DNA of 64,000 nt from Lachnospiraceae bacterium (GTDB lineage: Bacteria > Bacillota > Clostridia > Lachnospirales > Lachnospiraceae). The position numbers and the translations under genes are program-made. Shown piece by piece: positions 24,741 through 47,038 of the stretch. The notes under the pieces are model-generated. The model saw only the letters and a program-made list of their open reading frames with translations. It had not been told where the DNA came from and did no database searches. The number at the start of each line of letters is the position of its first letter. Position 1 is the first letter of the stretch. The stretch is from the NCBI GenBank assembly GCA_024685635.1, contig JAIKVP010000040.1, positions 67 to 64,066 on the forward strand, given 5' to 3'.

Positions 24741-24776
24741 ACTATAACAAACAAAGTGCAACAAAAGCGTAACAAA
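24741..24776 (-). promoter_or_regulatory. T4SS-regulon promoter copy 1 (11-bp-period direct repeat plus -10)
   Basis: Minus strand TTTGTTACGC TTTTGTTGCA CTTTGTTTGT TATAGT. Confidence 0.8.
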
Positions 24777-24804
24777 TTAGAAAAAATAATAAAAAAACTT
24801 TAAA

Positions 24805-26526
24805 TTATTTTCCAAGGTATGTAAATCCAAGCATTGTCATATCGTCAAACTGTGGCTCATCCTTAGCAAAATCATCCACAGCCATCCTCATTCTAAGCAA
24901 GGTATTTTCACAGCTTTCATCCTTATAGTCATTAAGAACATCAACAATTCTACCTGTTCCAAATCTCTCGCCAGAAGAATTCTTAGCCTCATTAAGACCA
25001 TCTGTATAAAGGAAAATGCGATTACCAGGCTTTAAGTCAAAATCATATTCAACAAATTCTGAGCCAGGCAAGAATCCTAACGGTGGGCCATGAGGAGTTT
25101 TCTTAATAACAAATCCTTCCTCATTATCAAGCATTATGGCAGGATAATCATGTCCAGCGTTACAAGCATTTACATGTCCAGTCTTAAGATTGATTATTCC
25201 AAGCCAGATAGTTACAAACATTCCAGCTTCATTTTTTTCGGAGATAAGCTTTTCAGAATAGCTTATTATCTCTTTAGCACTTCCACCTAAGCAGGCACGG
25301 CTCTTTAACAAGGTCTTACTTATAGCCATAAAAAATGCTGCTCCAACGCCCTTGTCTGAAACATCTGCTACAAGAATTGCTATATGGTCTTCATCAACCA
25401 TAAAGAAGTCATAAAAATCTCCACCAACCTCTTTGGCAGGTTTCATAATTGCGTGGATATCAAATCCATTTCTCTCAATGCCAAACTGTTCCTTATTAGG
25501 GAGCATTCCAGCCTGAATCTTAGATGCCAACTCAAGCTCATATCCCATACGCTCGGACTGTTTGGTGTATTTGGTAATATTCTCTATATTCTTTAGGGTG
25601 TTATCCTCCATCTTATTGACGGCTGACGCCAAGGTTTGAATCTCCTTAATGACGCTTATGTCATTAGTCAGACTAACATCACCCTTAGCATTTTCGTTAG
25701 AAAATCTGTCTGTCTCTTTTGCAATTGTCTTAACAGGTGAAACAACGTGTTTCGTTAAGAATTTAGATGCAATAACGAACATAATCACAATGACAATTAA
25801 TGTGAGTGCGCCAACTCCCTGAAAGAATGTATTCTTCATGTCAACAAGCTCATCGACATATCTCTGGGCACACATAATAGCCCTAACCGAGCCGTCTGAA
25901 CCCTTAATTGGCACAAGCGCTGTCAAATGTGGATGAGAACCTTCATCAACATTAATTCGGTTTACAATTTCTTTTGTAGATCCGTACTCAAATATATTTC
26001 TATATGCATTTATATAATCTTCTGATGATGTCTCACTTACATATCCAACAGGCCATGGATCGTAAGTACTGTTTGAATTTAGACAGTTAAATACAGATGT
26101 GTAGTGCTTATAATCACTGCTTGGGACAATTACATATATTACTGACATATTAAGGTCATTACAAAAGTCCACAATGTCAGACTTAGTTAAACCATATTCA
26201 GCAACATATCTCTCGTTATCCTCGGTTAAATAGTATGCATTATCTGAGTTAATAAGCCTGTTATTATATTCCTTATAACCTTCAGTTAAAACATCTTCGC
26301 CTAATTCTAAGTATTTGTCTATATTGTCACCATCAACCCAGCCAGCAGCTGTTAGGGCAACTCTATATACTGAATCCTTATATTCCTTAGAAAACGAGCT
26401 TGTAAATGCAAAAGAACCAATCGTAACTGTTGTAAAGGCAAATATTATTAGCATTATGATGATAGAACCGATAACTATTGTATATAAACTAGTGCCACGG
26501 CTCTTTATAGTCTGAAATAACTTCAA
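24805..26526 (-). CDS. Membrane sensor PP2C phosphatase (SpoIIE/RsbU-like, HAMP)
   Basis: 2 TM helices; EVGGDFYD, VADVSDKG, MFVT, NAGHD, YTDGLNEA, DDMT. Confidence 0.95.
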   Translation of the reverse strand: MKLFQTIKSRGTSLYTIVIGSIIIMLIIFAFTTVTIGSFAFTSSFSKEYKDSVYRVALTAAGWVDGDNIDKYLELGEDVLTEGYKEYNNRLINSDNAYYLTEDNERYVAEYGLTKSDIVDFCNDLNMSVIYVIVPSSDYKHYTSVFNCLNSNSTYDPWPVGYVSETSSEDYINAYRNIFEYGSTKEIVNRINVDEGSHPHLTALVPIKGSDGSVRAIMCAQRYVDELVDMKNTFFQGVGALTLIVIVIMFVIASKFLTKHVVSPVKTIAKETDRFSNENAKGDVSLTNDISVIKEIQTLASAVNKMEDNTLKNIENITKYTKQSERMGYELELASKIQAGMLPNKEQFGIERNGFDIHAIMKPAKEVGGDFYDFFMVDEDHIAILVADVSDKGVGAAFFMAISKTLLKSRACLGGSAKEIISYSEKLISEKNEAGMFVTIWLGIINLKTGHVNACNAGHDYPAIMLDNEEGFVIKKTPHGPPLGFLPGSEFVEYDFDLKPGNRIFLYTDGLNEAKNSSGERFGTGRIVDVLNDYKDESCENTLLRMRMAVDDFAKDEPQFDDMTMLGFTYLGK

Positions 26527-26557
26527 GTCATTTCCCCCATTCCGTAAGCTTAAACTG

Positions 26558-27034
26558 CTAGAACTTCTTTCTAATCTTGAGTATATTCTTGCCTTCCCTA
26601 TACTCGTAATCTACTGAATCCATAGTATTCTTGACCAAATGAATACCAAAACCACCTTCTCGCTCTATAAACATCTGACCTGAAACATCAGCATCATCAT
26701 AGGCAAGTGGGTCAAAAGGCTTACCTGAATCCATAAACTGAATTGTAACAATCATTGGATTCTCACTGACCTCGCACTCAATCTCAGCCTTACCAACCTC
26801 TGGTCTATAGGCATAAGATATAATATTAACGAAAATCTCCTCTACAGCAAGTCTTATCTGTAGAAGAATCTTCTTCTCACAGCCATAAGAGAGCAACTTA
26901 TCCTTAATGAAATCCTGCACTGGATCCATCGCGTCATCGGTCGCATCTATTGTTATAGTTGTTCCATCCTCACTGATTTTGTAATCAATATCGTCAGAAT
27001 TAGACCCCAAATGAATCATGCTTATATCTTCCAT
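26558..27034 (-). CDS. Anti-sigma factor/serine kinase (RsbW-like HATPase_c)
   Basis: LAVEEIFVNIISYAY, DSGKPFDP, GGFGIHLV. Confidence 0.92.
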   Translation of the reverse strand: MEDISMIHLGSNSDDIDYKISEDGTTITIDATDDAMDPVQDFIKDKLLSYGCEKKILLQIRLAVEEIFVNIISYAYRPEVGKAEIECEVSENPMIVTIQFMDSGKPFDPLAYDDADVSGQMFIEREGGFGIHLVKNTMDSVDYEYREGKNILKIRKKF

Positions 27035-27036
27035 AC

Positions 27037-27654
27037 CTACTTACCTCCGTCATCAGTTTCATCATATTCATACTCTTCGTAATCTTGACTTTCATCATCC
27101 TCGTTTTTTGGGACTTCCTTTTTAGTCTTTAACGATTTGAATCCGCCAACTAACAAATCAACCACTCGCTTATACTTGCCGTCTGATTTCTCGTCGGGAA
27201 CCCTCTCAATATCATCCTTAGTAACCTTATCAAATTTTGATTGAACCTTAAGCATAGCTAAGGCAGCATTGAATGTTCTTGCTGTATAAAAATCAAGTTC
27301 AAGCTTCTTGTCATCATTTTCATAGAAAACAATCAATACTGGATAGAAAATCGCCGACTTAACTAATGCACATGCCGCACTAGGCTTAGTCTGAAGATTG
27401 ACGCCTCTTCCCATACTCTCTATCGCTTTCTTAACCTTAAATATAGCTTTAGTATTGTTAAGATCGGACTTATATATGTATTCTCTATGCGACATTCCTA
27501 ATGTCACTATCTTGTGTTCACCCTCTGCTGGCCCCCAGGTTTGTAACCTTGCTCTGTCAACAGCCTTAAATCTTCCATCTGTGTCTATCTCGACATGGTA
27601 AAGCAATACACGCTTTATCTCAGCCTTAAAAGGGTCTTTTGTCTTCTTAGCCAC
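27037..27654 (-). CDS. Hypothetical protein
   Basis: 205-aa ORF in the operon, acidic C-terminus. Confidence 0.75.
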   Translation of the reverse strand: MAKKTKDPFKAEIKRVLLYHVEIDTDGRFKAVDRARLQTWGPAEGEHKIVTLGMSHREYIYKSDLNNTKAIFKVKKAIESMGRGVNLQTKPSAACALVKSAIFYPVLIVFYENDDKKLELDFYTARTFNAALAMLKVQSKFDKVTKDDIERVPDEKSDGKYKRVVDLLVGGFKSLKTKKEVPKNEDDESQDYEEYEYDETDDGGK

Positions 27655-46408: not shown

Positions 46409-46429
46409 AATGGTCGTTCCTTTCAAAAT

Positions 46430-46460
46430 GACACAAACAGGATTAAATCCTGTCTGTGTC
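46430..46460 (-). terminator. Hairpin/partial terminator downstream of the pilin gene
   Basis: GACACAGACAGGAT-tta-ATCCTGTTTGTGTC (one G-U pair) then ATTTT. Confidence 0.6.
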
Positions 46461-46471
46461 TAAGATTACTA

Positions 46472-46900
46472 TTAGTTATTCAAGCTTGGTGTAGAGTTAA
46501 CACCCTTAAGTGACTCGTTCATCCACTGTGAAAGAGGTCCAATTGAAGTCTTAAGAGCTACGATAAGTACGAAGATAAGTACAAATCCGATGATAGCTGT
46601 CTTAAGAGCCTGCTTACGCTTCTCTCTCTCCTGTGGCTCCTCAGCAGTTGCATACTTAACGCCAAGCATGATGCAGAAAAGAGATCCACCAGCGCCTACT
46701 AACATAAGCAATGGATTAACGAACTTGTTTAGTAAGCCTACGATTGGATTAACTACTCCATCAAATGTAACATTAGATGCAAATGCAACATCGCCGCTTG
46801 CAAATAATACTACTCCTGTTACGAGCAACATAGCCATAAGCTTCATAGCCTTTGTGTTGCTAACTACCTGTGTTGTGATTGTCATTAACTTGTTCTTCAT
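46472..46900 (-). CDS. VirB2/TrbC-like pilin
   Basis: Leader ending VAFA, then two hydrophobic helices separated by GVKYATAEEPQEREKRKQALK; first gene of the T4SS operon. Confidence 0.8.
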   Translation of the reverse strand: MKNKLMTITTQVVSNTKAMKLMAMLLVTGVVLFASGDVAFASNVTFDGVVNPIVGLLNKFVNPLLMLVGAGGSLFCIMLGVKYATAEEPQEREKRKQALKTAIIGFVLIFVLIVALKTSIGPLSQWMNESLKGVNSTPSLNN

Positions 46901-47002
46901 AATTTCTTCCTCCTTGGAAATAATAATATAATGTAATTAGTTCTTTGCCTTTTAATCGGCGGTTTTTACCGCTCATTGCGGTATGTTTTATTTTATGATT
47001 TG

Positions 47003-47038
47003 ATTATAGCAAGCTAAGTGCAACAAAAGTGCAACAAA
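47003..47038 (-). promoter_or_regulatory. T4SS-regulon promoter copy 3 (pilin operon)
   Basis: Minus strand TTTGTTGCAC TTTTGTTGCA CTTAGCTTGC TATAAT. Confidence 0.87.

Follow-up and report, generated by a model that had tools for sequence, protein, structure and literature searches.

In Escherichia coli, PhoB binds head to tail on 11-bp-phased repeats that replace the −35 element, as at pstS and phoA, and contacts region 4 of sigma, and in Agrobacterium the VirA/VirG two-component system switches on a type IV secretion system (T4SS) and its substrates through a shared vir box. The site of the Legionella regulator PmrA is reportedly a tandem repeat set at a constant distance from the −10 element, a description attributed to Zusman et al. 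in 2007. PmrA itself is a winged-helix regulator that activates about 40 scattered effector genes (PMC6989116). The SARP regulators act on direct repeats with a spacing of 11 (or 22) bp that overlap a poor −35 and whose 3′ copy lies 8 bp from the −10, and the cryo-electron microscopy structure of AfsR places two protomers on the repeats, where they substitute for the −35 contact (PMC10936776). Here we describe three minus-strand promoters in a 64,000-nucleotide (nt) stretch of contig JAIKVP010000040.1 from a Lachnospiraceae bacterium (hereafter, the window), which precede two operons of a T4SS island and the gene of a 472-amino-acid (aa) orphan protein. We consider these sites likely to be activator-dependent sigma-A promoters that are read by the adjacent response regulator and that would co-express the T4SS with about 32 cargo-like proteins.

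All three promoters follow a common plan, in which two direct repeats of 11 bp are separated from the −10 hexamer by an 8-bp spacer with TGn at its end. Promoter 3 (47003..47038, minus strand), which starts 24 nt past the stop codon of the kinase gene and precedes the pilin/T4SS operon, consists of repeats at 47038-47028 and 47027-47017 (TTTGTTGCACT / TTTGTTGCACT), a spacer at 47016-47009 (TAGCTTGC, with a TGC end), and the hexamer TATAAT at 47008-47003; its matrix score in the genome-wide scan was 40.0. Promoter 2 (34104..34139, minus strand; score 39.6) lies before the operon of a 1713-aa surface protein and partner-switching genes, and comprises repeats at 34139-34129 and 34128-34118 (TTTGTTGCACT / TTTGTTGTATC), a spacer at 34117-34110 (CTGCTTGA, with a TGA end), and TATAAT at 34109-34104. 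Promoter 1 (24741..24776, minus strand; score 34.7), before the 472-aa orphan gene, has repeats at 24776-24766 and 24765-24755 (TTTGTTACGCT / TTTGTTGCACT), a spacer at 24754-24747 (TTGTTTGT, with a TGT end) that holds a third, partial repeat register, and TATAGT at 24746-24741. The three sequences quoted in a preliminary description of this DNA were recovered letter for letter at these minus-strand positions, and the 11-bp period, the equal spacing to an extended −10, and the lack of a consensus −35 that it reported were all borne out. A generic sigma-70 scan (TTGACA-N16-18-TATAAT) reported none of the three promoters, so the description as extended −10 sites without a −35 holds.

A degenerate 20-mer built from the three sites themselves matched the window at these sites only, plus one shifted register within site 1, where shuffled sequence would give 0.07 matches on average (≤3 mismatches allowed). 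Because this pattern was derived from the sites that it recovers, independent support comes from matrix hits genome-wide and in other genomes and from conservation of the box across species. When ≤2 mismatches were allowed, 16 matches were found in the window's own 2.77-Mb assembly, compared to 1 for the reversed pattern. An iterated 37-nt matrix returned 40 sites at every threshold from 16 to 20 bits, compared to 1 or 2 in the reversed genome; the scores thus form two separate groups. Essentially all sites are intergenic, and a same-strand open reading frame (ORF) begins 16 to 250 nt downstream of 38 of the 40. The second repeat lies 8 bp from the −10 at 29 sites, 7 bp at 6, 6 bp at 3, and 11 bp at 2. 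TG precedes the −10 at half of the sites (20/40), and at 32/40 the best match to TTGACA at 16- to 18-bp spacing reaches ≤2 of 6 positions. The 22-bp box has the consensus TTTGTTGCnCw TTTGTTryann; box and −10 alone are conserved among the sites, and flanking positions show no conservation. The preliminary description had presented the three promoters as a regulon, and although all three are real, this was an undercount, as the matrix scan places about 40 across the genome. It had also counted frequent occurrence of the motif at unrelated loci against its proposal; the motif did prove frequent, but the loci make up one coherent class of about 32 large proteins without a signal peptide, with shared N- and C-terminal signatures and mostly without a Pfam domain.

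The distribution of the box follows that of the regulator. Among 41 relatives, the window's own genome carries 28 boxes, G004 carries 26, and G007 carries 31, while the remaining 38, including five genomes of the same genus, carry none. G004 and G007 alone hold an 87%-identical regulator (all other relatives, ≤43%), and their VirB4-like ATPase is 79 to 82% identical. In a sample of 400 genera of the family, with one genome each, only G233, a member of another genus, was comparable, with 32 boxes and a 73%-identical regulator approximately 10 kb from a 72%-identical VirB4. Nearly all other genomes searched gave 0 or 1 matrix hits. G004 and G007 keep the box and TGnTAnAAT at all three orthologous promoters, while the intergenic flanks diverge. 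Both elements are retained at site 2 beside a 24-nt indel that lies immediately upstream, and at site 1 behind an upstream gene that differs.

Variant boxes were also found beside paralogues of the regulator. G166 and G275 hold such paralogues only (about 40 to 42% identity), and in both a box stands ≤~100 nt after the regulator stop codon and 8 bp from a −10, reading TTTGTTGCGCT TTTGTTGCACT in G166 and TTTGTTGTCCA TTTGTTGTCCT in G275. No VirB4 match was obtained in the 70% complete genome of G275, and the only VirB4 of G166 is distant (24% identity) and lies about 2.6 Mb from the regulator. Next, 80 regulator-family loci from 80 species were subjected to a motif-blind test for two 9-mers 11 bp apart, agreeing at ≥8 positions and followed by TAnnnT at 7 to 9 bp, a pattern that the window's own genome shows at a background rate of 0.017 per kb of strand. 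Such repeat promoters occurred ≤200 nt past the regulator stop codon at 12/80 loci (0.3 expected), 0.2 to 3.5 kb downstream at 15/80 (4.5 expected), and ≤0.9 kb upstream at 8/80 (1.2 expected). The letters of the repeat shift as the regulator diverges (TTTGTTGCAC, TTTGTTGGACA, TTTGAGATGAT, TTTGATACG, and TCTTTTGCGCT). This comparative evidence, consisting of co-occurrence, cross-species conservation, and the paralogue loci, supports the earlier proposal that the box is an activator site; it likewise backs the suggested tie between the 472-aa gene and the secretion genes, and the neighboring response regulator as the factor.

Every regulator of ≥57% identity with enough flanking sequence is linked to a T4SS (VirD4 at 81 to 93% where it was reached, and a pilin in the remaining locus). 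More distant regulators (43 to 51%) at loci L105, L107, and L161 are linked to VirD4 (61 to 63% in two, 35% in the third) and to a STAS gene (35%), and their repeat differs, reading TTTTGCTnCnC or TGCACTTTG. G035 carries a 56% VirB4 without a regulator orthologue and without the box. Pairing of regulator and T4SS is therefore broad, not universal.

The regulator is encoded on the minus strand at 48982..49818, with a likely ATG start at 49794. Its receiver domain is clear (Pfam Response_reg, E = 1.2e-17) and is closest in sequence to LytR/BtsR-type receivers. The C-terminal part gave a sole Pfam match, to Trans_reg_C, at E = 0.09 and 13.3 bits versus a cut-off of 26.2, and its best match among PDB sequences was a weak one to the SARP DNA-binding domain of AfsR (E = 0.19); a profile search with the regulator against PDB sequences was dominated by the receiver and uninformative for the output domain. 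With an AlphaFold2 model (predicted local distance difference test score of 82, 30 homologues), full-length Foldseek matches over about 230 columns were to OmpR/PhoB-family proteins, including VanR, DrrD, PhoP, PrrA, and RpaA. The modelled winged helix lies C-terminal to the receiver, unlike the N-terminal arrangement of SARPs, and is followed by about 45 highly conserved residues (EYMxQYSWAE motif) that were modelled with low confidence. No BTAD domain was matched by Pfam, even at E up to 10.

The window's own genome holds a single protein of this regulator family. Homologues (54 to 74% identity) are annotated by the Joint Genome Institute as “two-component SAPR family response regulator” or [quoted passage not shown] labels that are annotation names only. 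Named homologues come from rumen and gut Eubacterium and Lachnospiraceae, and cultured carriers in public records are Lachnospiraceae bacterium NC2004, C6A11, AC2031, and LC2019. The family, paired with LytS-type kinases, occurs widely among Clostridia of rumen and gut, Faecalibacterium and Faecalicatena among them. No characterized member of this receiver plus SARP-like family was found in the literature.

Among the closest described systems are the SARPs (AfsR and the afs box at afsS, ActII-ORF4, and DnrI of Streptomyces), with which the locus shares a predicted OmpR-type winged helix and 11-bp repeats ending 8 bp from the −10, a distance kept at all three window sites and at most sites of the genome. 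It differs in that the winged helix follows a phospho-receiver, the partner is a LytS-type kinase, and BTAD was not detected; in its host, a low-GC Firmicute whose sigma-A promoters have an extended −10; and in its targets, which are a T4SS and orphan proteins rather than antibiotic gene clusters. PhoB shares the OmpR-family fold predicted for the regulator and the 11-bp-phased direct repeats that replace the −35, whereas the Pho box differs in repeat sequence and exact distance to the −10, and the system in kinase type and regulon content. In regulon logic, the nearest parallel is PmrA/PmrB of Legionella pneumophila, which Coxiella burnetii also has; the present system, too, would set a winged-helix regulator over T4SS genes plus scattered genes, and its box can serve as a handle for finding cargo genes. 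However, those hosts are Gram-negative and their secretion system is the type IVB Dot/Icm, regulator subfamily, repeat sequence, and T4SS type differ here, and translocation is proven in Legionella, while a cargo role here is predicted. As the box is not cTTAATatT-like and the regulator is of another family, the resemblance to PmrA is functional only. In VirA/VirG, by contrast, the vir box is followed by a normal promoter and does not replace the −35, and the regulon is small and plasmid-borne.

We propose that the LytS-type kinase would phosphorylate the regulator encoded just upstream (48982-49818), which would then occupy both repeats as a head-to-tail dimer. The 22-bp box ends 8 bp before a −10 that often carries the extended TG and fills the place of the missing −35, and the bound regulator would recruit RNA polymerase in place of the −35 contact, as SARP activators and PhoB do. 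Since the geometry of the box equals that of SARP sites, an AfsR-like mode of action may apply here, gated by phosphorylation of the receiver. One signal would thereby switch on both T4SS operons and the scattered genes of likely cargo together; the same box before the T4SS operons and about 32 orphan genes points to such co-activation of the machine and its likely cargo by a single signal. Regulator binding, activation as the direction of its effect, the start sites, the signal sensed by the kinase, and a substrate role of the box-driven proteins are all inferred.

The regulator operon offers a reference within the same DNA. It is preceded by a perfect sigma-A consensus promoter, read from the sequence (49867..49895, minus strand; TTGACA, 17 nt, TATAAT), which carries no repeat box; a GNAT acetyltransferase gene faces it on the other strand. 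The organism thus uses a normal −35, and the box promoters stand out without one. Autoregulation through the box was considered and rejected, as there is none upstream of the regulator operon and the consensus sigma-A promoter stands there instead; the regulator looks constitutively expressed in its own genome. A different box, made of TTTGTTGGACA twice and placed 8 bp from a −10, precedes the orthologous regulator operon in LC2019, C6A11, RUG12023, and G233; upstream boxes of this type lie at 9146 in L089, 9893 in L091, and 9880 in L095 (plus strand) and near 15540 in G233:C22. In G233, a second regulator paralogue (40% identity) lies just upstream. This suggests a two-regulator cascade in sister species, without a counterpart in the window's own genome.

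Several points weigh against this interpretation. The genomes that share the box are related and represent very few independent events, so their co-occurrence partly reflects the shared ancestry of one island. Because the C-terminal domain falls below Pfam thresholds, the assignment of the regulator to a DNA-binding class rests on predicted structure. Among the sites with low scores, four or five are possibly false; these stand before recO, an HD hydrolase, and a spurious ORF. The stop codons of the upstream genes lie only 24 to 39 nt before each window promoter with no strong terminator in between, and read-through could blur the transcription units. Finally, the box could equally serve a repressor. 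Were it an operator, with the regulator or another protein blocking extended −10 promoters and keeping the regulon repressed, then the TGn present in all three window sites and in half of all sites would make sense, as an extended −10 can work without a −35, and the box does overlap the region that RNA polymerase must occupy. Yet the other half of the sites have no TG and a weaker −10, still without a −35, and would hardly fire without help; the geometry matches SARP activator sites exactly; and a canonical −35 is used elsewhere in the organism, as in the regulator operon. We therefore regard repression as unlikely.

That a different factor reads the box, either an alternative sigma controlled by partner switching or another winged-helix protein, appears very unlikely to us. 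A complete partner-switching trio does lie within the box-driven operons, and the genome encodes six sigma-70-family genes; however, the island has no sigma gene, the −10 is sigma-A-like, and a tandem direct repeat is unlike a sigma −35 element. Variant boxes, moreover, adjoin regulator paralogues at loci without a detected T4SS or STAS gene. The sole sigma-70-family gene on a contig with a box site adjoins an ABC transporter. Similarity without regulatory meaning, through chance or through one cassette copied by duplication or a mobile element, is hardly credible. It would account for the 17/39 downstream proteins that have some domains in common, and part of the downstream family did arise by duplication on this evidence, but nothing is conserved outside the box and −10, most downstream proteins are mutually unrelated, with the 472-aa protein having no paralogue, the reversed genome yields only its 1 or 2 hits, and orthologous promoters of other species have retained the box while their flanks have changed. 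Activation by the adjacent regulator fits the paralogue-locus data and the missing flank similarity better than any of these alternatives.

The genes behind the boxes were then considered as candidate cargo. About 32 sites precede large hydrophilic ORFs, which, where complete, range from about 470 to 1905 aa; a further one, truncated by a contig end, has more than 2390 aa as it stands. Separate from this set are the sites before the pilin and surface-protein operons and before a CvpA-like membrane protein. Pfam searches at E ≤0.001 found no match in 26 of the 29 downstream proteins scanned; the exceptions were the CvpA-like protein and the proteins behind the low-scoring and possibly false sites before recO and the HD hydrolase. 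With the 2885-aa and 700-aa proteins of the window added to these 29, the Pfam result was again almost entirely empty. Signal peptides and membrane segments were found in none of the large box-driven proteins.

These proteins share features at both ends. Their N-terminus reads MKE in 15/39 and MP in 9/39 cases, compared to 22/1774 and 47/1774 among all ORFs of ≥150 aa. The net charge of the last 25 residues is +2.3 versus a background of −0.3 (Mann-Whitney p = 2e-6), the tails are approximately twofold enriched in P, N, K, A, and Q, Gly or Pro occurs among the last five residues in 15/22 tails (28% in the background), and 10/22 end in Lys. Disordered-looking tails often terminate in GK, MGK, or PxK, genome-wide and in the window (23251-24669, 50659-53109, and 53124-61781). 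The shared N-termini and C-tails may constitute an export signal. The 2885-aa and 816-aa proteins of the window show the same signatures, and the promoter of their operon lies past the contig end. Judged by the lack of signal peptides, the C-tails, the N-termini, and the relaxase-less island, the box-driven proteins are candidate substrates of the T4SS.

The 472-aa protein has an MKE N-terminus, a Lys/Asn/Pro-rich tail, and neither a signal peptide nor a membrane segment. “Domain X,” named in a check that the preliminary description suggested, did not hold as a second link for this protein: phmmer against all genome ORFs of ≥150 aa returned nothing even at E up to 10, and BLASTP against the neighboring 816-aa and 700-aa proteins gave E ≥0.26. 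With no detectable paralogue, that link was rejected. Beyond the 17 downstream proteins with some domains in common, the others, this one included, are singletons.

Regulon content across species was compared by promoter counts and N-terminal signatures, not gene by gene, and the ORFs behind 29 further boxes in G007 and G233 mostly begin with MKE or MP. A 1304-aa box-driven protein (G000:C317:1519-5430) has four paralogues in its own genome (24 to 29% identity; C283, C115, and C223), some of which have no box of their own. No orthologue of it was found at E ≤1e-10 in the relatives, including G004 and G007; as these sisters share the T4SS, the cargo repertoire appears to turn over fast.

Within the window, all genes relevant to the box regulon lie on the minus strand, with the regulatory genes first in the direction of transcription. 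The response regulator gene is followed by that of a 219-aa protein (48305..48964), which has only a weak pilin-like NCBIfam match, and by that of the LytS/YehU-type sensor histidine kinase (47063..48304; His_kinase PF06580 and HATPase_c). The operon behind promoter 3 (34179..46900) runs from the pilin (46472-46900), followed by an 843-aa protein, through the VirD4 coupling protein (41819-43843), followed by a 335-aa protein, a VirB6/TrbL-like protein (38763-40784), and the 1390-aa VirB4-like ATPase (34505-38677) to a STAS protein (34179-34478), the last gene. A short hairpin, ACCGC AATGA GCGGT (46955-46990, minus strand), lies in the 102-nt leader of the pilin gene. Promoter 2 drives an operon (24805..34079) that starts with the 1713-aa protein (signal peptide, PLAT-like match), continues with 404-aa and 205-aa proteins and an anti-sigma-like kinase with a HATPase_c_2 domain (26558-27034), and ends with a PP2C/SpoIIE phosphatase (24805-26526). 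Behind promoter 1 is a single-gene unit (23188..24669) made up of the 472-aa gene (23251-24669) and a terminator-like hairpin (23211-23188).

The partner-switching trio of STAS protein, HATPase_c_2 kinase, and PP2C phosphatase is thus divided between two box-driven operons of an island without a sigma factor gene, and perhaps controls secretion activity, not transcription. None of the ORFs in the T4SS island (window positions 23251-64000) yielded a relaxase domain, and the low-coordinate flank of the island consists of the housekeeping genes murB, rapZ, whiA, and hpr. Together, these two observations fit a chromosomal, non-conjugative system.

The kind of promoter mechanism proposed here is already known; new are the BTAD-less receiver plus SARP-like regulator subfamily, the size of the regulon at about 40 promoters, and its content. 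A literature search found no published description of this box or T4SS regulon, which is weak evidence of absence. To our knowledge, Gram-positive T4SSs are understood almost only as conjugation machines. In four species, dozens of unlinked orphan genes are connected to a T4SS island without a relaxase through a 22-bp box that keeps a set distance from the −10, and this link therefore provides a ready list of candidate cargo and a likely master regulator. For the regulator family, a general DNA-site rule is predicted, namely, a pair of 11-bp direct repeats whose end lies 8 bp from the −10. More tentatively, and with somewhat less than even confidence, we suggest that the box marks the cargo list of a protein-translocating T4SS in a Gram-positive rumen member of the Lachnospiraceae, in which one two-component signal would call up at least about 32 fast-evolving large proteins without a signal peptide, with a Lys/Asn/Pro-rich C-terminal export tail, for delivery into another cell, be it bacterial, protozoal, or fungal. 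Such a system would represent a Firmicute equivalent of the PmrA-Dot/Icm effector regulon, with related systems and co-diverged boxes in many rumen and gut Clostridia.

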